A stretch of 36,896 nucleotides of DNA from a virus (lineage: Duplodnaviria > Heunggongvirae > Uroviricota > Caudoviricetes). Position numbers and translations under genes: made by a program. Shown one piece after another: positions 13,455 to 27,576 of the stretch; the first letter of the stretch is position 1; each line of letters begins with the position of its first letter. Below the pieces are notes generated by a model. That model was not told the DNA's origin and did not search any database. It was given only the letters and a program-made list of their open reading frames with translations. The stretch lies in IMG/VR virus record IMGVR_UViG_643348551_000010. The stretch is one strand, 5' to 3'.

Positions 13455-14942
13455 TTACAGAATGAACTGAACTTGTGCCGCGAAAATGCGGAACTGGTTA
13501 ATCAGATTCGGGCCGCACAACACATCAAGACGGTCTTTGTCGTCCTTGTTACGTGCCACATACAGCTCCTCTTTGAACGTGTCGAAATCCTCGACCAGCC
13601 CGGCGTTTTCCCATTCTTCAAACAGTGCCAGCAGCTCTGTTTTGATCACGGATGGCGTCACCACTGCCTGACCAGTGGCAAAGCGGGTGCCATCACTTGC
13701 CAGTTTGTAGTTCGGGAATTTCTGCGTGATGCGGGTTCGCAGCGAATAACGCAGATAACTCAGCGTGGCGATGGTATTCACGTTCAGATAAGACGGATCG
13801 CTGTCACCGTACTTGTTTGTGCGGTACATCGTGATCATGCGTTCAATCTGCATTTCACCACCATCATTCACGTTAAACGTGGAGATGCCGTCAAACAGCA
13901 GGGCATTACGTTCTGACCAGGTGAAACGATCACCCACCGCAGGCGGCATTCTTCCGGGCAGCGTCAGCGTCTGGAGTGGACGCGCCGGGTCGATGGAAAG
14001 CGCCTGACTGGCAACGGCACACAGGGTGGCGGCGTACAGATATGACGGTTCCGGTGCACCGGCAATCCCCATACAGGAGATCAGATGGTCGTTACGACTG
14101 ACACCAAACGTGGAAATGTCCCCATACGTGCCGGACAACACCGTTACTGCAAAGCCATCAGCCTGATTGACCGGCCCCCAGCGTTCCTGCAATTCAGTGC
14201 GTAACAGATTCAGGTTTGGTTCATCGGTGTAAGGCATCACAATATATTTGTATTGCAGATCACCCATCCCCGCGATGCTGGCGCTGATATCCGGGTTGCT
14301 GTTTTTCCCGGATGCGGCTTTGAATGCTGTGATAATCCCGTAAGGGGTGGTTTCACCCGCGTAATAGTTCCAGCGCACGTCCACGGCAGATAATGCCCCC
14401 GTAAATTTTGCACTCAGAACCACATCTGCATGGGTGTCATCACTACCGCTGTCTGCACGTACTTCTGCCGTCACCGGTAAATCCGGCTGGCCTTTGATTC
14501 GGGCAACCAGCAGGTCAGCCAGCGCCGCCCCTGTAGCACCTGCTGCGACAGATATCGCCAGTCGCTGACCGGCAATGTAAGTCACAAGCGAGCCGTTTTC
14601 GCCTGCCGTTCCAGACAGTGAGATTTCACCGACAGCAGCATTACCGGTGCCGTTCCCCTGCGGGATACACCACAGCTCCGCCACGCGGTTAGCGTTCAGG
14701 AATGCATCTGCCATCAGTGCCAGCATGGAACCCTGACCAAACGCCGCACTGGCCTGTGAGCCGGAACGGATACGGACAGGCACGTTTGGTGCCGCACTGG
14801 CTTTACTTCCGCTTTGCCCGAACATCAGCACGCGCTGACGGGGTGCCGGTGTTCCGCTGACGGCATTACTGTTATCAAATTCGATATACGTCAGGGGAAC
14901 GCGAACATCTGACGGGATCGCGTTAAATGAAATATCGCTCAT
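13455..14942 (-). CDS. L: Contractile tail sheath protein
   Basis: 495 aa, sheath-sized, upstream of tube. Confidence 0.85.
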
Positions 14943-15145
14943 TTCGATTTACTCCGTTTTTTCGGCGCAGCGTCGGTATCATCCGCCGTGTTTTCGGTGC
15001 TCCCGACTTCAACCACATCACCGGCTGTAAGGCGACGTATCCAGAAACTGTTACGGGGCTTTTCTTCTCCCTCCGGAGCCAGTAATTTCATCGTGAGCGG
15101 GTCACGGATGGCTTTTCCCGCTGCGGGTTTAATTTTCAGCATCAT
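14939..15145 (-). CDS. Small virion morphogenesis protein (Mu gp38-like, tentative)
   Basis: 68-aa ORF translationally coupled between flanking structural genes. Confidence 0.55.
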
Positions 15146-15677
15146 GATCCTTTTCCTGATTCACATTGATATGTGCGGCAAATTCCGGGGTTTCGTCCGG
15201 GAATTTCCAGGTCTGCCAGTGGCGCTCGTAATCATCCAGCGAGTCCATATCCACACCGGACGGTAACGGCGTGATGCCACTAAAATAGATACCGTACAAT
15301 GCGACTCCTGAATTACTCTGGGCATCGGTATACAGGTTGCGGACGCTGGTCAGACGCAGGCCGGTTGTGGGGCCAAATGTATGTCCGTTCATTCCGGCAA
15401 TCAGGCGCTCAACAATCTGGTAAATCCCCGGACGGTCGGTTTCCCGACCGTTCAGCATTTTTGCCACCACGTAAAACACCCAGCGGCTTTCCACTTCACG
15501 GCGGGTGCGGCCTTCACCGCAGCCCAGCCACGCCAGATAAACAGACGGCGGTGCAATCAGGATTTTTTTAATTGCGGCATCAGACCAGGTGCCGGGATGC
15601 GTTTTTACATCCCGCAGTGTTCGTCCGAACAACCCACGAACAGCATCGAGCAAAGCAGCTTCTGTGGTGGCAATCAT
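15129..15677 (-). CDS. Head-tail connector / tail completion protein (Mu gp37-like, tentative)
   Basis: 182 aa, synteny. Confidence 0.65.
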   Translation of the reverse strand: MIATTEAALLDAVRGLFGRTLRDVKTHPGTWSDAAIKKILIAPPSVYLAWLGCGEGRTRREVESRWVFYVVAKMLNGRETDRPGIYQIVERLIAGMNGHTFGPTTGLRLTSVRNLYTDAQSNSGVALYGIYFSGITPLPSGVDMDSLDDYERHWQTWKFPDETPEFAAHINVNQEKDHDAEN

Positions 15678-16099
15678 CAGATAAACCCCTTCTGGTTGCG
15701 GGAGAAAATGGCTGCGTCAGACTGCACCTCAACCAGATTTTCGCTGACCGGTTCAACACCATGCACATCTGCGCCAAGCGGTAATTTTCCGTCGAGAACC
15801 ACCCCCAGCCACCTGATGGCGTCTTTGTAACGTTGTGTGCATTGCTCTGTTGCCTGTTCATCACACAGGTAATAAAAAGCAATATCGCAACAAACACGAA
15901 CCAGCGTTACAGGAACCACTGACAATGGCAGCTGGTAACGGGGACTGATATAACCGTCGATAAGCGCGCTGGCATCCTGTAACGCCTGCGTAATCAGTGC
16001 ATCATCTGGTTCAAAGTTGTCCGATTTATCAGCGGTCAGTTTGTCCAGATTGCTGCGCTGGTAACGCTTTACCATGTCGTCAAGAGAGGCATAGCTCAT
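15677..16099 (-). CDS. Head completion protein (Mu gp36-like, tentative)
   Basis: 140 aa, synteny. Confidence 0.65.
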   Translation of the reverse strand: MSYASLDDMVKRYQRSNLDKLTADKSDNFEPDDALITQALQDASALIDGYISPRYQLPLSVVPVTLVRVCCDIAFYYLCDEQATEQCTQRYKDAIRWLGVVLDGKLPLGADVHGVEPVSENLVEVQSDAAIFSRNQKGFI

Positions 16100-16506
16100 G
16101 CTTGCGCCTCAGCCAGTGCTGCTTTGATTTGTGCCGCAGTGACGTTTTCCCCCAGCACCGCACTGACCGCTTTCACTTTGGGTTCCCCCCCTGCGGTAAA
16201 GTGTTCCGGGTTTGCCTGATCCAGACCGGCAACGGTCGCACGGATACGGGCGTTCAGATCGCCCACACCCAGAACGTCCAGCCCCCCAGCCTCAGCGAGC
16301 GTTTCTGCTGCCGTTGTCGATACAACAGACAACACGCTGTCGGCACGGATGATCGCCAGTTGTTCTTCGGTGACTTCCACTGTGTTTTCGCCACGCGTAA
16401 AGGCGATACCGGCGCGGCGGTAGACCGGGCGAAGACATTTAATAATCGCCGTGCAAGTGATGCGAGAAGTGTCCAGCCGTTGTGAATTAAGCGAAGTGCC
16501 TGACAT
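16096..16506 (-). CDS. Head-associated protein (Mu gp35-like, tentative)
   Basis: 136 aa, first ORF after the capsid gene hairpin; ATG at 16504-16506 with an upstream aggag. Confidence 0.65.
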   Translation of the reverse strand: MSGTSLNSQRLDTSRITCTAIIKCLRPVYRRAGIAFTRGENTVEVTEEQLAIIRADSVLSVVSTTAAETLAEAGGLDVLGVGDLNARIRATVAGLDQANPEHFTAGGEPKVKAVSAVLGENVTAAQIKAALAEAQA

Positions 16507-16540
16507 AACACATGCTCCTCCTTTTCCTTTAAATCAGGTT

Positions 16541-16564
16541 AAAAGGCGGCCTGAACCGCCTTTT
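16541..16564 (-). terminator. Stem-loop (attenuator / intrinsic-terminator-like) just downstream of the major capsid gene
   Basis: aaaaggcgg / cctgaa / ccgcctttt: perfect 9-bp GC-rich stem, T-run on the sense (minus) strand, in the 66-nt gap between the capsid gene and the next gene. Confidence 0.55.
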
Positions 16565-16572
16565 AACGACGG

Positions 16573-17490
16573 TTACAGGTAGTCAGCAACAACCAGTTGC
16601 AGCTTACCCTTCATCTCGTTAGAGACGGTGGTATTGCCATCCGCGAACAGCTCACGGTTAAGCAGTTGCTCTGCGGATTTTTCCAGTCCGACCGGTACAA
16701 CGATATGCGTCGGCTTCAGGCCCAGCTTCTTACCGCCATCACCTTCAAAAGAACGCATCAGTTGCCAGCCCTTCCAGAGGTTATCCAGCGTCAGATCGCC
16801 TTTTACCGCGACAGCCATCTGCCAGAAGCCGTAACCGGCAGCACGGCGGGCGCTGGCACCAAACAGGAACTCGTTATCCATAAAAACGTGGTCGTCATCG
16901 ATACGGGTACGTGCGACCAGTTCCGGTTTGCGGCGCTCCTGGAAAATCAGCGGTTTGACTGCGCGGGAGCAGTCCAGCAGATAGAATGGCAGACCGCTGA
17001 AGCTGTCCTGCTCAACGATGTTGGAGGTATTAACTGCGCTGCCCGTGCCGTCCACATTCGGATATACCGGATGCTCCTTGTCGAAGAAGTTCTGACCGTC
17101 ATAGCAGGGCTGGGTAAAGCCATCTTTCAGAAGTTTAAAAATCAGCTCATCCGGCTGAACTGCCGCAGAACGGCCCATCTCCTGAAAAATCGGCGCATAA
17201 ATACCCAGATTGTCATCCTCGAAGTCATCACGGGAAATACCCACGGTGCCTTCAAACGTTTTATTAGCGATGGAGTAGCCATGCGCTTCCATTTGCTGAA
17301 TGGTTCGCTTACCCACCCATTCTTTCAGGGTCGGGAATTTACCCAGCCAGCCATAGGTATTGCTGCGGGTGGAGGAGTTCACCACCATTGCAATTTTGCT
17401 GTACTGCGACGGGGCGTCTTCAAGACCGCCCTGAAAATCCTTACGCCAGGAGGTCATCAGAGCTTTAATGGATGCCGGGGTGACAATCAT
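16573..17490 (-). CDS. T: Major capsid protein
   Basis: 305 aa immediately downstream of the protease/scaffold gene and followed by a hairpin. Confidence 0.85.
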   Translation of the reverse strand: MIVTPASIKALMTSWRKDFQGGLEDAPSQYSKIAMVVNSSTRSNTYGWLGKFPTLKEWVGKRTIQQMEAHGYSIANKTFEGTVGISRDDFEDDNLGIYAPIFQEMGRSAAVQPDELIFKLLKDGFTQPCYDGQNFFDKEHPVYPNVDGTGSAVNTSNIVEQDSFSGLPFYLLDCSRAVKPLIFQERRKPELVARTRIDDDHVFMDNEFLFGASARRAAGYGFWQMAVAVKGDLTLDNLWKGWQLMRSFEGDGGKKLGLKPTHIVVPVGLEKSAEQLLNRELFADGNTTVSNEMKGKLQLVVADYL

Positions 17491-18587
17491 TTTTCTTGTT
17501 CCTGTTTCATTTTCAGATACTCAGCCTCAGTAATGCCGAGCGCCTTCACTGCTGCTTTTTCATCAGCAGACAGCACCGCCACCGCCGGTTTTTCCTGCGA
17601 CGGGTTTTGTACCGTTGTGGTCTGCATGGCAGATAACGCAGCGATGGGCTGTTTTTTCTCAAGCTGTGCCGACAGTGCCGCCACGCCAATCTGACCGCCA
17701 AGCTGTTCCAGATAGGCACGTTCGCTTTTGAAAATGCGGCCTTCCTGTTCCGCCTTGTCCAGAACGGCGCTCAGGCTGGCGGTGGCACTTTGCGCGGTGG
17801 CCTGAGCCAGTTCATCAAGCACGGCGTTGTAGCTTTCCACCGGGACGTATTTCGTCAGGTCAACGGCGGCTTTCTGTGCCTTTTCCAGTTCGGCGGATAA
17901 CGACGCCACTTTTCCGGCATCTGTTTCGAGTGCATCAAGCGCACTCAGGGCCGCGCTGGCCTGTTCATCAGTGATGTCTGCATTTTCGGGGACAGTTACC
18001 CCAAGACGCGCAAGCAGCTTGCGCAGCGTTTCATTCATGGGTTTGTTCTCCTGTTGAAGGATGTCGGGAAGGCCTGCCGCCAGTGCGGTCAGCTTTTTCA
18101 TGCCGGTGGCACCGGGATCATTGGTCAGCGCAGCAAGGCGGATTTGCAGTACCGCACCAGTGGCGGTGTCATACGGAAAAACCGCAGAGAGATAACCAAA
18201 TTCACCGTCATCGATGCGCTGCTGGGCTGCCGCTGTCCAGCGTGGGTGGATAAATAACCCTTCACCTTCACGCCACTGCATTTCATCGGCGTTAAACCAG
18301 CCAGCCGCGACCAGTTGTTCCGGGGGTAATCCTTTGTCCTTACGCAGCTGGTTATGCTCGTAATCAATCAGCACGTCCTGGTTAAGTGCGCGGATACCTT
18401 CAATCAGGCGTCCGGCAATTTCTCCGTCGATGAACCAGCCCTGACCGGTTGTTACATCAAACGGGCGACCGTCACGGGCACTGAAATAACCGGCAGGCAA
18501 TAGCTGGCACCAGCCGTCATCGTCAATGGACAGCGCACCCAGCGCAGCAATACCAATCGCGTGTTTTTTCATGTCCGGCCTGCTCAT
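17487..18587 (-). CDS. I: Head maturation protease with in-frame C-terminal scaffold (I/Z-type)
   Basis: 366 aa, ATG at 18585-18587, overlaps the capsid gene start by 4 nt. Confidence 0.8.
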   Translation of the reverse strand: MSRPDMKKHAIGIAALGALSIDDDGWCQLLPAGYFSARDGRPFDVTTGQGWFIDGEIAGRLIEGIRALNQDVLIDYEHNQLRKDKGLPPEQLVAAGWFNADEMQWREGEGLFIHPRWTAAAQQRIDDGEFGYLSAVFPYDTATGAVLQIRLAALTNDPGATGMKKLTALAAGLPDILQQENKPMNETLRKLLARLGVTVPENADITDEQASAALSALDALETDAGKVASLSAELEKAQKAAVDLTKYVPVESYNAVLDELAQATAQSATASLSAVLDKAEQEGRIFKSERAYLEQLGGQIGVAALSAQLEKKQPIAALSAMQTTTVQNPSQEKPAVAVLSADEKAAVKALGITEAEYLKMKQEQEK

Positions 18588-18773
18588 CGTGATTTGTGAG
18601 TAGCCAGTGTGCGGGGAACGGGAGAAAAGGCGGGGTTATCCAGTTTTAGTAATTCTGCAGGAGAAAGATAAAGGGGAAGGGAAATGCATGACGCTACCCC
18701 CTTCAAAACCCCTTCAAAAACGCCACAGAACCTTCAAAAATTCTTTATCGCGTGATTTTATCTCTGTATCTGG
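18588..18773 (-). promoter_or_regulatory. G-I intergenic region at the genome centre: expected site of the late promoter for I and candidate strong gyrase site
   Basis: 186-nt non-coding gap about 17.8-17.95 kb from the left end; three phased copies of ccttcaaaa at 18700-18708, 18711-18719 and 18731-18739. Confidence 0.5.
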
Positions 18774-19244
18774 TTACTGCGTCAGAGCGGCGCTTACGCG
18801 TTTTCTGATGGCATCATAAATTTCCTGCTCACCGCTCTTATCCAGCCCCATATAAGGACGTGCAGGAACACCTGCCGGACCGGGGGGCATATCAGGCTTA
18901 CCGCCCCACTGATGAATAGCAGCGTAAACTTTTGGTGAGCCAATCAGGGCATAATCCGGGCCGTAAGCGGAAGTGATGCTGCGGGCCAGATCGCCATGCA
19001 GGGTAAGAATGCTACCCGGAATAAAACCATGCTCCTGACGCCATGCCAGCCACGGGTCACTCCATGACTCCCAGCTCTGGCCCGTGTCCGGGTCTGCCTG
19101 CCGTTCAAAAGCCTGTTCAGAAGACGACAGCAATGCCGCAGCCATCACACGTGGCACATATCCGTCATGCGTTACCGTTGCCAGATCATCAAGAGCAAGC
19201 CGGATACGTCGCACATCCACGGCAACGTTCATATCAAGACTCAC
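18774..19244 (-). CDS. G: Virion morphogenesis protein G
   Basis: 156 aa; GTG at 19242-19244 preceded by a strong SD (ggaggtg), coupled to the stop of the upstream gene. Confidence 0.75.
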   Translation of the reverse strand: MSLDMNVAVDVRRIRLALDDLATVTHDGYVPRVMAAALLSSSEQAFERQADPDTGQSWESWSDPWLAWRQEHGFIPGSILTLHGDLARSITSAYGPDYALIGSPKVYAAIHQWGGKPDMPPGPAGVPARPYMGLDKSGEQEIYDAIRKRVSAALTQ

Positions 19245-20560
19245 TTATTCACCTCCACATGCCCTTCCAGTACGTCAATCATCCCGTCAGCAATCGCGGC
19301 TTCAAGCGACTGTGCAGATACGCGGCTGATACTGACCAGCACATCAGCCCGGTCATTCTGCCTGCCGACTGTCTGTGATGTTCTGACCACAATTTGGGCC
19401 GTGCCGTCACGGGTTGCCACAACGTACAGCAGCTGGTGATTTTTTCTGTCCCACAATACCGCCTGTGGTTCTGCCATCAGAGACGGCAGACGCTGTAAAT
19501 CCTCTGCTTTCAGGGCAGCATCAGCAGCGGTAGCCAGACTTTCTCCATTCATCACCAGTAAACGGGCTGGCATATTCCCGGTGCGCTGATGTACGGCTTC
19601 AGCTACCGATTCCGTCATAAAACCCAGTGCCCGGATCTCACGCCCGGCGTGACGTGATTTCGCCAGACGATTAAGCCACAGGGAAAAAGCAAGCTGGCGC
19701 TCCCGGCTGTTATTCAGCGTCTGTACAACCTGCTCACGCAGCTGCGCGTCACGAACTTCCACCAGTTTTCGAATCAGCGCCTGATCAGTACCGAATGCCG
19801 CCGAACCGGGGTTATATGACCAGCCAACGTCCGGCGTCATTTTTACCCGACCGTTGTCAAACGTGGTTGACGATGTGCGGAAAATCTCTCCTGTGCTTTC
19901 ATCCGTGCCGGCCTCCACTTCGCGGGTATCCATGAATGAAGCACCATAGCTGACCTGTAATCCCAGTTCTTTCATTCGGGCCGCAGATATCGCACGAACG
20001 CGGCAGCGACAGCTCCAGCCATTGGGCGGGTAATGTGTCTGCCAGAAAATATCGTCATACCGGAAAATCATATTATGCAGCCGGGCATGTTCCGGGCGCG
20101 TTCTGCTGTCCATAACGGCGACATACTGCCAGTACGGATACAGGTCTGCGGTATTCATCATCTGTGCATAACGTCCCGCCCCGTACGCTGTACGGGTATT
20201 GACGTTATAAATGGTTGCCAGACGACGCGGACTGCCCAGTTCGATTTCCTTCGCGTTTCCCTCTGCATCCACGATGATTTGTTTTCCCCACCATCCGAGC
20301 TTTTGCAACCGGGGAGCCAGTGTGCGGGTAAATTCCTCACGGGTGATACCCTCACTGACAGCCCGCTCCACTTCCTCACGGATTGTGGTCAGGACATCCA
20401 TCCGGGCAGCTTTGGCAACGGTAAAGGCACGGGCGTGCGCGTCTGCCAGTTGTTCGTACCAGTTCCAGGTGATGTTGTAGCCTTTGGCGCGGAAATACGC
20501 GACAGCCTCCTTTGGCGGGAGGCGTGCGGCATACGCCAGATCAATGGTCTGCTGCGGCAT
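19241..20560 (-). CDS. F: Head morphogenesis / minor capsid protein F
   Basis: Large ORF downstream of portal; start set at ATG 20558-20560 (G-rich SD-like sequence upstream) rather than the SD-less GTG at 20596. Confidence 0.75.
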   Translation of the reverse strand: MPQQTIDLAYAARLPPKEAVAYFRAKGYNITWNWYEQLADAHARAFTVAKAARMDVLTTIREEVERAVSEGITREEFTRTLAPRLQKLGWWGKQIIVDAEGNAKEIELGSPRRLATIYNVNTRTAYGAGRYAQMMNTADLYPYWQYVAVMDSRTRPEHARLHNMIFRYDDIFWQTHYPPNGWSCRCRVRAISAARMKELGLQVSYGASFMDTREVEAGTDESTGEIFRTSSTTFDNGRVKMTPDVGWSYNPGSAAFGTDQALIRKLVEVRDAQLREQVVQTLNNSRERQLAFSLWLNRLAKSRHAGREIRALGFMTESVAEAVHQRTGNMPARLLVMNGESLATAADAALKAEDLQRLPSLMAEPQAVLWDRKNHQLLYVVATRDGTAQIVVRTSQTVGRQNDRADVLVSISRVSAQSLEAAIADGMIDVLEGHVEVNK

Positions 20561-22079
20561 CCAGACGCCCCCATATATCGGCAACAAAAATGGCACGGGT
20601 CAGCATGTCGATAAGTTCTGCATCATCCATCTGCGGATATAATGAAGCGGCTTTGTTCATGGCGGCTTCCGGGCCATCTTTCAGCACAGAAAGAATGACG
20701 GGTTTCAGCAGGGGATCAACCGAACGCTGCCAGTCTTCCGGTGAAACGCCCATCCGGTCGATATCATCCTTCTGCGGGATATCATCAGCGGATAATGCGG
20801 CCTCTTTCTGCGAACCGTTATCCGGGACAACCGGTTGTACAGTAAACACGGCTTCATCACCGACCGGCTGTGGAATATGAAGTTTTTCCTGTATCCAGGA
20901 GACCGGAATACGCATTCCTGCCGCCAGTTTCGGAATGGCGTCAGACAGTGCCGTAATATCACCCGCTTCACTGGTATCAAATACAATGCCCGGCAGGCGG
21001 TTAATATCAATGGTGCTGTTACTGTTCAGTGCCAGCAGGGGATAGATCAAGTCACGGTTAATACTGCGGGCAAGCTGGCCCACATCCGCGTTACGGATTT
21101 CCCGGCGAACCTCGTCATGCACTTCACCCAGCGACCGCGCACCTTTATCTCCGGCCTCTGTGGTCAGGGTGCCGCCCAGAATGGCTTTTGAAATCGCTTT
21201 TTCTGCCCAGCCAATCATCGCCATAAAGGGGTCTGACTGACCATCTGCGGCGCTCTGAAAATCCAGCGTCATCCCCATCGGAATAATGCCACCGGCACGT
21301 CGCCCGATATCCATCACGGCCTGCATCAGCGTGGCTTTCTCGCGGTTCGTGGAGCCGGTCGGATATTTACCGACGCGCATAGGGAGTCCGTAAATTTCCA
21401 GGAACTCCGCAAAATCACGCACGGAATAGTTTTTAAAAATAAAAGGCCAGATAAGCGTGCGCACAAGGCCATTGGTACCAACGTACCCGGTGCGGGATTT
21501 GGCCCGATGCATAAACCAGCCGAACGGTTGCAGCTCCAGCCCGTGATAAGACGTATCACGCAGACGTAATTCGTTCAGATTGTCGGGGTTCGCGCAGAAC
21601 AGCGCCGGATCGCGATGATGCAGCGCCACCGGCACGCGCATTTTCCCAAGCCACCCCCATTCAATCTCCTGCATGGAATAACCCTTGAGAATGGCATCAC
21701 CGGCATCAAACAGGGCATCTTCAAACCACGCCGCATCATGCAGATATTCATTCAGCATGTCGGCGTCTTTTTTCTCCTGTGCACTGGCATCACGTGCCGG
21801 AGCGATGCGCCATTCCAGCGCCTGAATGGCAAGGCGGCGTTTGCTCAGTTCGGAAAAAAGGTGGGTGTCCTTTTCTTCCATATCAAAGGCCAGGTCAGCC
21901 TGTGCTGTCAGATCACCGCGTTCGGCATCACGCAGCATCTGCGCGGCCCGGTTCGGCGTCACGCCACTGGAGGGATGCTCCTGTGTGCGCTTCATGACCA
22001 TTGCCAGCTCATCGCTGCGGGTCTGCATTTCATCGTCAAAATCAAACGGCTGCCCGGAAATATCCAGAATACGGCCCAT
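20541..22079 (-). CDS. H: Portal protein
   Basis: 512 aa, start ATG 22077-22079 overlapping the terminase stop (TAATG coupling). Confidence 0.85.
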   Translation of the reverse strand: MGRILDISGQPFDFDDEMQTRSDELAMVMKRTQEHPSSGVTPNRAAQMLRDAERGDLTAQADLAFDMEEKDTHLFSELSKRRLAIQALEWRIAPARDASAQEKKDADMLNEYLHDAAWFEDALFDAGDAILKGYSMQEIEWGWLGKMRVPVALHHRDPALFCANPDNLNELRLRDTSYHGLELQPFGWFMHRAKSRTGYVGTNGLVRTLIWPFIFKNYSVRDFAEFLEIYGLPMRVGKYPTGSTNREKATLMQAVMDIGRRAGGIIPMGMTLDFQSAADGQSDPFMAMIGWAEKAISKAILGGTLTTEAGDKGARSLGEVHDEVRREIRNADVGQLARSINRDLIYPLLALNSNSTIDINRLPGIVFDTSEAGDITALSDAIPKLAAGMRIPVSWIQEKLHIPQPVGDEAVFTVQPVVPDNGSQKEAALSADDIPQKDDIDRMGVSPEDWQRSVDPLLKPVILSVLKDGPEAAMNKAASLYPQMDDAELIDMLTRAIFVADIWGRLDAAADH

Positions 22080-23734
22080 TACCAGCCCCCTCGTTCAAAC
22101 TGGTGATAATCATCAAAATCATCGTTATCAACATCATCACCACGGTGGCGTGGTGGCAGCGCCTGTATGCTGTCCTCGTCGATAACAAAACCATTCATAT
22201 AAGACGCCCTGACAGCCATACAGAGCGCCACGGCAAAGTCGCCATGTCGTCGGCCTTTACCGCCTTCATCTTTTGTGCGCCCCTTATCAATCTGCGGAAT
22301 ACCTTTGTCCACCTTGATGTGGAGCAGGTCATCAAGTGTGGTCTGGTGCCGGGCAATCGTGATGTTCTGCGCTTCAAACTCGCCTTTCAGTTTTGGCATC
22401 CACTCCTGATACCAGGATGCGGTCAGATTCACACAGTCGATCATCTCCGGGCCATAAATCAGACGGGCGGCTTCTGCCAGATAACCGCCGTTACCGGTGG
22501 CATCAAATGCAGCGCCGGTAAAACGGGGCAAACGGGACAGAATGAATAAAAGGATTTGTCGCTGCTGGTCATAGGTCACATTACGCAGCTCCACGCGGAA
22601 ACATTCGCGTTTGCGTAAGTCTGGAGTGATGGCAAGCGGCACAAACACCGTCAGGTCGCCACGGCGTGCAAAGTCTTCGCCCAGTACGTGTTTATTGAGC
22701 GGTGACAGCGCATCGAGCAACGGGAGCAGCTCCTGTTCACACCAGTCCTGAACGATACCGTGGCGCATCTGCGGTGTCAGCGATTCAAAATCGTCCGGGG
22801 CTTCAAAACGCAGAACCGGGATATCCCGCGCGGGTGTCATGGCAGCTTCAATCAGGACACGGGACAGGTAAGCGCCACCGGATTTTTTGGGAATACAGCC
22901 GTATTCCTCGTCGGCGCTCTCTTTGTTCGGCGCGTTCCGGTACAGGCCATCACGCCAGGCTTTCTCCGCTTCCGGTGACCACGGCTGATTCGTAACATAA
23001 CAGATACGCCGGTACAGCCCGTCAGCGATGGCATCGTCCAGCGTGATACGGTGAACGCTGTAATCCTTGCGCCCCTCGCGTGCATCCTGAATGTACTGGT
23101 TAAACAGGTTATCGACGCCGTTATGTGTCGATATGATCCGCACGCGGGCACCCCACATGGTGAGCGCAAAGGCCGCTTTCAGGAGTTCGTCCAGGGCTTC
23201 ATGAAATGCCGCTTCATCAATCACCACATCCCCCTGTAAACCACGCAGGTTAGACGGGCGGCTTGAAAGCGCCTGCACCTTAAATCCACTATTCGGAAAG
23301 CGGATCATGTAGGTGAGGATTTCTTCTTTTTTGTCGCTGTCCCAGAAGGTCTGCTCCCAGACGTCAGCCTTTGCCAGCTGGTTAAAGGCGCGGGCAAACA
23401 GGGCACAGGCGGCGATGTATTCCAGCGCCATTTCCTGACGGGAACCCACATAAAAGACGTTGCGACCACCACGGCGACGCGGCTTTGCGGCCGTCATGAC
23501 ATTGCGGCCCGCTTCGGCCCATGTCAGACCGGTACGACGGGATTTTTCAGCAATGCAAATCTGGCTTTCATCCTCAAACCAGCGGCGCTGATAGCCCAGA
23601 AAAACCGGTTCATTGCGGGGCTGTGCTTCCCCGATATCGGTCACGATATTCACGCCAAGCAGTTCGGCTTCCTTACGCAGGTCGATTTTGCGGGGCGCAT
23701 GAAGGGCTTTAAGTTTGCTTTCTTTGGTGCTCAC
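22079..23734 (-). CDS. Terminase large subunit; annotated start is a GTG without obvious SD
   Basis: 551-aa ORF immediately upstream of portal; size and position typical. Confidence 0.85.
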   Translation of the reverse strand: MSTKESKLKALHAPRKIDLRKEAELLGVNIVTDIGEAQPRNEPVFLGYQRRWFEDESQICIAEKSRRTGLTWAEAGRNVMTAAKPRRRGGRNVFYVGSRQEMALEYIAACALFARAFNQLAKADVWEQTFWDSDKKEEILTYMIRFPNSGFKVQALSSRPSNLRGLQGDVVIDEAAFHEALDELLKAAFALTMWGARVRIISTHNGVDNLFNQYIQDAREGRKDYSVHRITLDDAIADGLYRRICYVTNQPWSPEAEKAWRDGLYRNAPNKESADEEYGCIPKKSGGAYLSRVLIEAAMTPARDIPVLRFEAPDDFESLTPQMRHGIVQDWCEQELLPLLDALSPLNKHVLGEDFARRGDLTVFVPLAITPDLRKRECFRVELRNVTYDQQRQILLFILSRLPRFTGAAFDATGNGGYLAEAARLIYGPEMIDCVNLTASWYQEWMPKLKGEFEAQNITIARHQTTLDDLLHIKVDKGIPQIDKGRTKDEGGKGRRHGDFAVALCMAVRASYMNGFVIDEDSIQALPPRHRGDDVDNDDFDDYHQFERGGW

Positions 23735-23788
23735 AGGTGAAAAATCCGGTATAAATTTTCAGGCTTTAATCAGTAAAAAGAGGTTGCT

Positions 23789-23974
23789 ATGAAAGAAAAG
23801 CTGACCATTGACCAAAAAATTGAGATTGCAAAAATAGCAAGTGACTTTGTTATCGCTGGCATGAATACGAATAAACAGCCAGCGTGTCTTGCCGGTTCTG
23901 ATCAAAATGTGAAGTCAGAACGGGAGTTGTTAAAACATATTTATCAGTTGCTGGAGGCAATGATTACTGATTAA
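23789..23974 (+). CDS. Hypothetical 61-aa protein encoded antisense to the late operon
   Basis: ATG at 23789 with SD aagagg 5 nt upstream; occupies a 229-nt gap lacking any minus-strand ORF; ends convergently, 11-nt overlap with the 64-aa gene. Confidence 0.4.
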   Translation: MKEKLTIDQKIEIAKIASDFVIAGMNTNKQPACLAGSDQNVKSERELLKHIYQLLEAMITD

Positions 23975-24158
23975 TTTGTGACTCTCTGATGATCTGGCCC
24001 GCGATACGCGGGCCAACCACAATCTGCATTAACAGATACAGTGATTCGGCTTTTGTGACGATATGAATATTGCCCTCCTCAGCCAGCGCCGCTTCGACGA
24101 TGGGTTTGAGTTTCAGGGCAATTTCCGCAGACGTTTTTTCTTTGGTTTCAACAGCCAT
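23964..24158 (-). CDS. Small protein with hydrophobic C-terminal segment (possible membrane tether)
   Basis: 64 aa from ATG 24156-24158 with strong SD (aaggaga), coupled to the upstream gene stop at 24172-24174. Confidence 0.6.
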   Translation of the reverse strand: MAVETKEKTSAEIALKLKPIVEAALAEEGNIHIVTKAESLYLLMQIVVGPRIAGQIIRESQINQ

Positions 24159-24171
24159 TACATTTTCTCCT

Positions 24172-24750
24172 TTACGCTTTCCCCAGCAGCACATCACGGA
24201 TACGCTGCTCCAGTTCTTCGCTGATGCCATCCTGCCCGCGCAGTTCTTCGCTGACAGCGTTTGCCGCTTCTTCTGCGAATGCCTGGCGGATCTCTTTCTC
24301 GCGCCGGTGGCTGGACATTGCTGTGGATTCCAGACGCTGTGCCGCCAGCATGGCGTTTTTCAGCAGTTCAATATCCACGTCATCTTCCGGTTTTTCGATT
24401 TGCCGCATCATGGCTTTAAAAAGCTGGCTGCGGGCCATTTCCAGAATCAGCTTTGTGGTTTCCCCCATTGGCTTGTCGCCAAGTTCTGCGGTCAGTGCTG
24501 ACGTCATTTCACGCATCTGTCGCAGGTTATGGCCTACCTGTTCGACGTTTGTCGCGTAACGGTTCAGGCCGGAACGGGAGAGTTTCATGTCATCAGGCAG
24601 TCCGGCATCTTCAATCAGGGCGTTAATTTCTTCCAGAATGCGGGCCTGTGGGATTGCCTTGTCACGCAGCATTTCATGCAGTGTTTTGCGCACGTTTTCC
24701 GGCAGCAAATCCACTTTTGAAGCCCGTCCCCGTGTTTTCCTGTCCATCAT
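24172..24750 (-). CDS. DNA-packaging protein, candidate terminase small subunit (tentative)
   Basis: 192 aa, charged helical protein positioned upstream of the terminase large subunit. Confidence 0.55.
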   Translation of the reverse strand: MMDRKTRGRASKVDLLPENVRKTLHEMLRDKAIPQARILEEINALIEDAGLPDDMKLSRSGLNRYATNVEQVGHNLRQMREMTSALTAELGDKPMGETTKLILEMARSQLFKAMMRQIEKPEDDVDIELLKNAMLAAQRLESTAMSSHRREKEIRQAFAEEAANAVSEELRGQDGISEELEQRIRDVLLGKA

Positions 24751-27023: not shown

Positions 27024-27576
27024 GCAGAACCTCCCGGCAGGCGCTGGCGAGCAGATCCAGACGGTTAAACCAGCCGTTCAGATATTTCCCCTGCGAGGCA
27101 CTGGATTTGATAATCCCTGCGTAATAGCGGGAACGACGCAGGAAACACTGCAACAGCAGCCAGTCAGTATCGGCACGCAGTACGGCTGCGCGAGTGTTTT
27201 TGCCGACGATGCCATCATCATCAACACCTGCTGCCGCCTGGAGGATTTGAATTGCGCGTTTAACACCGTGCTGAACGGCAGCATCAAAGACGAATAAGGA
27301 AACACCATCAGGCCATTCGTTACACTTTGCCGCCAGCCAGTAATCACGCCAGTAGATTTGCGCCGCCTGCTCGTGGGTTAAATCTTTAATACGGGTATCA
27401 GGCTTCCCGTCACCGTTAACATCGGTTTTGCCATCAATAACGCCGTCGCGACGGTCAGAAATGCCGTATTTGGTTTCGCCGCCACGGTCAGTGGGATCAT
27501 TAACGTAACCACCTTCAACATCAGGCCGTATAACAAAATTCAGCGAATGAAGGAATGCAGGGGAAAACTCAGGCAT
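27016..27576 (-). CDS. GH108-family peptidoglycan hydrolase-like protein (predicted muramidase with C-terminal PG-binding-like region)
   Basis: Motif EGGYVNDPTDRGGETKYGI typical of the GH108 N-terminal domain; start set at ATG 27574-27576 with SD aggaggg (the track start at 27609 is a GTG). Confidence 0.7.
   Translation of the reverse strand: MPEFSPAFLHSLNFVIRPDVEGGYVNDPTDRGGETKYGISDRRDGVIDGKTDVNGDGKPDTRIKDLTHEQAAQIYWRDYWLAAKCNEWPDGVSLFVFDAAVQHGVKRAIQILQAAAGVDDDGIVGKNTRAAVLRADTDWLLLQCFLRRSRYYAGIIKSSASQGKYLNGWFNRLDLLASACREVLHG

Follow-up and report, generated by a model that had tools for sequence, protein, structure and literature searches.

The DNA examined, a stretch of 36,896 nucleotides referred to below as the window, is the genome of a Mu-type phage, reversed in orientation and collinear with Mu 8000-36717 at about 93% identity when the whole window is compared by blastn. 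Since it runs in reverse relative to Mu, all the late genes lie on the - strand. A 2-kb region around the element described here matched Shigella phage SfMu at 92% identity over 99% of its length; for Mu, D108 and Mu-like phages of Yersinia the figures were about 96% and 75%. The element is a stem-loop in the intergenic region that separates T, the major head gene, from gene 35 (Table 1). Its location after the major capsid gene, which had been claimed in a sequence-only reading of the window, was confirmed, the T product matching Pfam PF10124 (Mu-like_gpT, E = 5.6e-125) and sharing 99% amino acid identity with the major head protein of Mu and SfMu. Gene 35 starts with the ATG at 16506 on the - strand, and its Shine-Dalgarno (SD) region is identical to the annotated ribosome binding site region of Mu_35. 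In the case of gene I/Z, the start homologous to that of Mu is probably, from the sequence, the ATG at 18572, the mechanical ORF start of I (18587) lying 15 nt upstream of it.

Table 1. Features of the T-35 region and of other parts of the window mentioned in the text
Feature	Position	Strand	Description and basis
Counterpart of Mu late promoter PI (approximate)	18588..18655	-	alignment only, with Mu 17977-18043
Gene I/Z (protease/scaffold)	17487..18587	-	5' of T, same transcription unit; ORF, Pfam Mu-like_Pro
Gene T, major head (capsid) protein	16573..17490	-	305 aa, stop TAA 16575-16573; ORF list, Pfam, amino acid identity
T-35 intergenic region	16507..16572	-	66 nt, T stop codon to gene 35 start
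Stem-loop	16538..16567	-	GTTAAAAGGCGG / CCTGAA / CCGCCTTTTAAC; 12 perfect Watson-Crick bp, 6-nt loop
mRNA 5' arm of stem-loop	16567-16556	-	GUUAAAAGGCGG
Loop of stem-loop	16555-16550	-	
mRNA 3' arm of stem-loop	16549-16538	-	CCGCCUUUUAAC
U4 run of mRNA	16541..16544	-	directly 3' of GC core, then AACC; pairs with A4 run 16561-16564
Shine-Dalgarno of gene 35	16517..16522	-	GGAGGA within AAAAGGAGGAG; sequence; 10 nt 5' of ATG
Gene 35, head-to-tail connector protein	16096..16506	-	136 aa, first gene 3' of the hairpin; ORF, Pfam FluMu_N, Mu_35 annotation
Gene 36	15677-16099	-	ORF; Pfam Phage_Mu_Gp36
K	15129-15677	-	ORF
Gene 38	14939-15145	-	ORF
L, sheath	13455-14942	-	ORF
D, terminase gene	24172-24750	-	flanks low-GC insert
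E, terminase gene	22079-23734	-	flanks low-GC insert
Other perfect 9-bp hairpin	23995-24015		TGGCCCGCG-ATA-CGCGGGCCA; only one in the window besides T-35

Three further parts of the window depart from Mu. Most of gene 36 (J), window 15738-16096, has no Mu alignment and matches SfMu at about 92%; judged from these alignments, the gene 36 region is a mosaic patch that starts exactly where gene 35 meets gene 36. Window 18660-18775 (- strand), which lies between G and the PI-like region, differs from the region of Mu which holds the post-G terminator and the strong gyrase site, with about 81% of the alignment columns identical overall and much fewer across Mu 17908-17953. In addition, a low-GC insert of about 437 nt at 23735-24171 (GC 0.39-0.40, as against about 0.55 in its flanks), not found in Mu, separates D from E. 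It carries a + strand ORF of 61 aa at 23789-23974, for which a Pfam search gave no match, followed by the other perfect 9-bp hairpin of Table 1, and resembles an antisense moron equipped with a terminator of its own.

On the sense (-) strand, the T-35 hairpin begins 5 nt past the T stop codon (UAA) and reads, on the mRNA, G-UUAAAAGGCGG(U)-UCAG-(G)CCGCCUUUUAA-C, where the loop shrinks to 4 nt, UCAG, through an additional U.G pair. The stem is built on a GC core of 5 bp, GGCGG/CCGCC (5-6 bp when the loop-side pair is counted), to which the pairing of the A4 and T4 runs adds up to 9 bp, while TT/AA and a G/C pair extend it to 12 bp. The inverted repeat described in the sequence-only reading as a perfect 9-bp stem flanked by A4 and T4 therefore exists, but it is 12 bp long and the runs lie within the stem. 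A GC-rich stem-loop of the dimensions expected of an intrinsic terminator (about 5-14 bp, with a loop of 3-8 nt) is thus present, with GGCGGU/GCCGCC as its core, and it stands in sense orientation 3' of a coding region. A scan of the whole window against Rfam 15 at gathering thresholds gave no matches, and thus none of the hairpin to REP or to any other curated structured RNA family covered there.

The isolated hairpin has a folding energy of -19.8 kcal/mol, about 4 standard deviations below the mean of 36-nt segments of the same strand, and ranks sixth or seventh per strand among all such segments; one of the more stable ones was located at 23988-24023, in the non-Mu insert between D and E. 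Moreover, no other perfect inverted repeat with a short loop in the 36.9-kb window is as long. In dinucleotide shuffles, 0.01 stems of at least 12 bp and 0.75 stems of at least 9 bp were expected per shuffle, and a chance origin of the 12-bp stem was rejected on these statistics. The existence of the hairpin is confirmed; it is strongly non-random, and its position is conserved.

The same locus already carries a public annotation. The Mu record (AF083977.1) lists at 20068..20087, between Mu_34 (T) and Mu_35, a regulatory feature described as a terminator predicted by TransTermHP, and the D108 record (GQ357916.1) lists a rho-independent terminator at 20117..20137, at the equivalent locus. Mu, D108 and SfMu share one and the same T-35 gap sequence, from which the window differs at two positions, both transitions. 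The first is an A to G immediately before the 5' end of the stem, whose base thereby gains a G-C pair, while the second, a loop-closing A to G, turns a U-A pair into U.G. Locus, flanking genes and sequence are otherwise the same, with no substantive difference, and the public annotation is itself a computer prediction. From its sequence, the hairpin is the stem-loop already annotated as the predicted T-35 terminator of Mu, an ordinary and already known element. In the literature searched on Mu or Mu-like phages no transcript 3'-end, Northern, RNA-seq or transcript map of the site was found; the 2026 MuC-clamp paper does not address the T-35 terminator, and the SfMu paper gives six predicted terminators without detail.

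About 30 sequences of the Mu group show hardly any variation in the hairpin. Essentially the same T-35 gap occurs in 18 IMG/VR loci and in 9 metagenome contigs, the latter being near-identical copies retrieved by an anchored pattern scan, with a variation too low for covariation statistics. The full T-35 region was also found in 43 of 5,426 complete E. coli genomes. One locus (L123) carries a C to T at the 3' base, by which the A.C mismatch of Mu becomes A-U, and another (L117) carries the same A to G as the window; in L015 and L017 the one further change lies downstream of the hairpin. Three substitutions affect the hairpin or the base of its stem: A to G on the 5' side of the base, C to T on its 3' side, and the A to G that closes the loop. 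Each of them preserves a pair or creates a new one, and no pair-breaking change was seen among the approximately 30 Mu-group hairpins.

Two kinds of rearrangement were observed around this conserved gap. In two IMG/VR viral contigs (L019 and L020) the capsid protein is only 69% identical, while the T-35 gap and gene 35 are identical; DNA identity rises from about 65-75% to 97-100% some 60 nt before the capsid stop (the equivalent of window 16576-16640), and therefore a recombination junction lies within the last 20 codons or so of T. In a third (L005 2418-2520, IMG/VR UViG_2531839192_000008) the hairpin unit is duplicated in tandem, AAAGGCGGTTCAGACCGCCTTTTAACCTGATTT, the first copy with an extra 8-nt loop duplication and the repeat bounded by AAAGG microhomology, an arrangement which looks like slippage at the hairpin leaving two stem-loops in series.

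These two rearrangements could speak for a DNA-level element, namely a palindromic site for a dimeric protein, or a hotspot of recombination or slippage at a module boundary: a mosaic junction lies about 60 nt upstream, joining capsids of 69% identity to an identical gap, and one relative has duplicated the hairpin unit. But the junction falls inside T and not at the hairpin, and the relatives described below keep the pairing without keeping the sequence, their arms changing in length symmetrically, which indicates a structure and no sequence-specific site. A role at the level of DNA is considered hardly credible.

What the hairpin does to transcription depends on its U-run and on the operon in which it lies. 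The tract 3' of the core, UUUUAACC, has four U and then none, set against the U-rich stretch of about 7-9 nt by which an intrinsic terminator is recognized. A consensus terminator scan, whose rule was at least 5 T in 8 nt, did not list the T-35 hairpin, since U4 falls short of that rule; TransTermHP, for its part, accepted the identical sequence of Mu as a terminator. All four TransTermHP terminators in Mu have a symmetric design of A-run, stem and T-run, and a clearly longer run, of 7 T, occurs only in the one that follows mor. The T-35 element looks like a weak terminator, a property that would fit a need for read-through.

Such a need can be deduced from the Mu record. There, the late promoter PI (17977-18043), whose region is recognisable in the window by alignment with Mu, lies upstream of I, and the next promoter, PP (27287-27353), is located inside gene N, about 7.2 kb downstream of the hairpin, with no promoter annotated between the T-35 terminator and PP. 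From gene 32 to gene 43 of the Mu feature table the other junctions overlap or measure at most 14 nt, the exception being the 66-nt T-35 gap, which is the only sizeable promoterless gap within the PI late transcription unit. Genes 35-43, those for sheath and tube among them, lack a separate promoter in this annotation; they would depend on read-through from PI across the hairpin, and therefore any termination at this point could only be partial, an attenuation and no full stop, with the majority of polymerases passing.

With slightly more confidence than doubt, we read the hairpin as a leaky intrinsic terminator, or attenuator, within the C-activated PI late operon, which would also protect 3' ends and so raise the I-Z-T mRNA over the downstream message. 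This is the most likely reading both for the element of the window and for its counterpart in Mu. From the structure, non-randomness, position and conservation of the hairpin, together with the operon layout of the Mu record, we infer termination, its efficiency and the stabilising effect. As RNA polymerase leaves T, the nascent RNA would fold its GGCGGU/(A or G)CCGCC core right before UUUU, and a fraction of the polymerases would release the transcript at the hairpin, while the remaining ones would continue into genes 35 to 43 (connector, tail terminator, sheath, tube, tape measure, N). The terminated transcripts would end in a 12-bp hairpin able to resist 3'-to-5' exonucleases, and read-through transcripts, once trimmed back to the hairpin, would be likewise resistant. 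Partial termination and hairpin-protected 3' ends would therefore bring the message for protease, scaffold and capsid above that of the downstream genes. The short U4 tract is consistent with a low termination efficiency.

More distant relatives bear on this reading. A tblastn search of a phage collection gave 320 records with a gpT homologue, of which 12 divergent ones were read. Phage records with a gap of at least 50 nt after the capsid gene usually have a GC-rich hairpin of unrelated sequence there, examples being SuMu (GGGGUGGGG...CCCACCCU), Rhodovulum RS1, the Vibrio phages martha and 1.142.O, Pseudoalteromonas HS6 and Ralstonia RS138; in four records the capsid gene is followed by no gap. 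For prophages, an alignment-based scan with one genome per species yielded 80 loci with capsid identities of 42-71%. A perfect stem of at least 8 bp within about 100 nt past the capsid stop was present in 18 of the 80, against 68 of 2720 control blocks (2.5%), these being the other 105-nt blocks of the same loci and mostly coding sequence; the enrichment (odds ratio 11, Fisher p = 8e-12) refers to loci which are phylogenetically non-independent (L060/L061 and L069/L070, for instance) and whose gene starts were called heuristically. In a second comparison, subject to the same non-independence and heuristic gene starts, 29 of 46 gaps of 35-150 nt (63%) beat their own dinucleotide shuffles at p <= 0.05, with a mean z of -1.94 over the 46 gaps (t-test p 9e-11); the hairpins share no sequence relationship, and the segment of the window, with z = -3.68, is a structured post-capsid gap of the same kind. 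Folding energies of 44-nt segments discriminated poorly between post-capsid and other blocks (median percentile 0.19), because GC-rich coding sequence folds strongly.

The closest non-identical relatives, from Kluyvera and Edwardsiella, have perfect stems with matched changes in both arms. The Kluyvera hairpin reads GTTAAAGGCGG-TTAAT-CCGCCTTTAAC and that of Edwardsiella TAAGGCGGC-TTTAG-GCCGCCTTA, with A/T runs of 3/3 and 2/2, respectively, as compared with 4/4 in the window. Here the arms were compared directly, a MAFFT alignment of both gaps to Mu having misaligned the hairpin. The T-run itself is much less widespread: when T residues were counted over the 8 nt that follow the GC core, one of 18 strong hairpins in relatives had at least 5 and five had at least 4. 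In 120 further E. coli genomes of the 5,426, many of them O157:H7, the match ends at or just past the capsid stop codon. The one O157:H7 prophage read, a Mu-like prophage of E. coli O157:H7 strain 2-6-2 (L126 749-769), has an 8-bp GC hairpin in a 43-nt gap, downstream of a gpT-family capsid gene and adjoining the SD of an HI1506-related gene; it reads GCCGGGCU-UAC-GGCCCGGC, followed by CCCUGCGGAGGG, without a U-run. Post-capsid hairpins across the Mu-like family often abut the next SD in this manner. Since most relatives and the O157:H7 prophage have no U-tract, the conserved feature is the hairpin and not the U-tract, and hence no canonical terminator. Post-capsid hairpins without U are, as far as sequence can indicate, no less consistent with a barrier to 3' exonucleases or with insulation of translation than with termination. 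The role of terminator or attenuator proposed in the sequence-only reading thus stands in part, favoured by the sense position, the Mu and D108 annotation and the conservation, and weakened by a run of only U4 and by the lack of a U-tract in most relatives.

The main rival to a weak terminator, and a serious one, is that the hairpin could act purely as a barrier to mRNA decay, with no termination at all: 3'-to-5' exonucleases would stall at it after an endonucleolytic cut farther downstream, and the I-Z-T segment would outlive the downstream one. The comparison just described argues for such a barrier, as what the family conserves is a stable post-capsid hairpin, usually without a U-tract, the O157:H7 prophage that was read included, and as the lengths of the A and T runs co-vary in close relatives, suggesting selection on the full stem and not on a free U-tract. 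Nevertheless, the Mu-type element has U4 directly after its GC core, and two independent annotations predict a terminator. Moreover, a decay barrier is compatible with partial termination, so that the two readings are not exclusive. As the sole function, protection against decay is judged unlikely, to be kept in mind all the same.

A competing fold of the mRNA bears both on the weak terminator and on a possible control of gene 35. In the 81-nt mRNA segment, the minimum-energy fold pairs the 3' arm, CCGCCUUUU, with the SD, AAAAGGAGG, and the 5' arm with the end of T and its stop codon. In the window this alternative has -27.7 kcal/mol, as against -23.7 kcal/mol when formation of the hairpin is imposed; for Mu the corresponding figures, -23.8 and -22.3 kcal/mol, make the two folds nearly isoenergetic. 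The thermodynamic optimum of the mRNA strand is thus the competing fold, here and in Mu, which counts against the leaky terminator. The window-specific A to G closing the loop strengthens the SD-pairing alternative (16515-16580, - strand). On these folding models, the hairpin could control the translation of gene 35, either by insulating it from re-initiation by ribosomes that have completed T or by toggling with the SD-pairing fold, so that the connector, needed in 12 copies, would be kept low. The SD is predicted to be paired with a probability of 0.98-0.99 in the window and 0.64-0.77 in Mu, the fold has a z-score of -3.68, and in several relatives the hairpin abuts the SD. But the SD-pairing alternative was found in none of 14 relatives, where the plain hairpin has pair probabilities of at least 0.9 in all but one (L058), and a U-rich arm can easily be complementary to a purine-rich SD by chance. 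The SD-sequestering fold was consequently treated as an idiosyncratic by-product of that complementarity, missing as it is in the 14 relatives, and control of gene 35 is regarded as improbable.

The symmetry of the element raises the further possibility of a bidirectional insulator, in which A4-stem-T4 would also stop antisense transcription, for example host read-in from the right end of a prophage inserted at random, in the direction opposite to the late genes. The minimum-energy fold of the + strand is the same 12-bp hairpin, followed by UUUUAACG, an A-tract lies 5' and a U-tract 3' of one hairpin (AAAA-stem-TTTT), and the symmetric A-run/T-run design is shared by all four TransTermHP terminators of Mu. 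An upstream A-tract is also found with ordinary unidirectional terminators. The transcription units are not convergent here, both flanking genes lying on the - strand, and the overlapping + strand ORFs are mechanical calls without support. As regards the claim that the hairpin can work in either direction, the structure is symmetric, but no partner for it was found nearby on the + strand, the nearest promoter-like site on that strand being more than 4 kb away, with 2 sites in 13 kb against a shuffle mean of 7.4. In addition, the hairpins of most relatives have neither an A-run nor a T-run. We hold a bidirectional function to be very improbable.

The family-wide picture also allows a broader proposal, put forward tentatively and with low confidence. 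The post-capsid element of Mu-like phages might be a U-tract-independent hairpin whose action is primarily post-transcriptional, as an exonuclease barrier or as an insulator of connector translation, the U4 of Mu being a secondary, lineage-specific addition; in Mu, the hairpin might toggle with the SD-sequestering fold and so link the translation of gene 35 to the ribosomes finishing T. Since the hairpin recurs throughout the family and the U-tract does not, the label of rho-independent terminator in Mu-like annotations may misstate the mechanism, which could in reality be mRNA stabilisation or translational insulation instead of termination. The question of mechanism is relevant to the engineering of Mu-derived expression or transposition tools.

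Several known systems offer a comparison for the leaky terminator preferred here and for its main rival. Intercistronic hairpins, such as the E. coli REP sequences of malE-malF and those of the Rhodobacter puf operon, stabilise the upstream segment of the mRNA. The likeness lies in a stable intercistronic stem-loop by which the upstream segment would outlast the downstream one, and it fits the U-less hairpins of the relatives; the hairpin of the window, however, does not resemble the REP consensus and gave no match in Rfam. A different parallel is found in four Pasteurellaceae prophages (L051, L053, L054, L056), where a hairpin stands 6-40 nt past the capsid stop, AAAGTGCGGT...ACCGCACTTT, an inverted pair which we take to resemble the Haemophilus uptake signal sequence. 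According to the account of Kingsford et al. 2007 given in PMC4553209, inverted uptake-signal-sequence pairs act as terminators in Pasteurellaceae. The hairpin of these Mu-like prophages is, like that of the window, a symmetric A-run/T-run stem at an equivalent position, but the E. coli element has no uptake sequence, and the resemblance is one of design and position only.

For other phages, weak terminators and a terminator directly behind the capsid gene are documented as means of balancing expression, and offer a direct precedent. In LUZ7, more than 60% of the termination sites permit substantial read-through, and T7 uses inefficient terminators for balancing expression (PMC9163698), while both LUZ100 and T7 have a strong terminator directly 3' of the capsid gene (PMC10134795). 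T7-like phages differ in that they encode a single-subunit RNA polymerase and place the terminator beside a dedicated capsid promoter, whereas in the window and in Mu the host RNA polymerase, starting from the C-activated PI, has to continue for about 7 kb; the two elements are unrelated in sequence. What they have in common, T-phi after gene 10 and its LUZ100 equivalent on one side and the T-35 hairpin on the other, is a stem-loop right after the most-needed structural gene, by which the expression of the capsid would be set above that of the later genes (PMC10134795). The T-35 hairpin therefore matches a familiar phage habit, that of a weak stop placed after the capsid gene, and the finding itself changes little.
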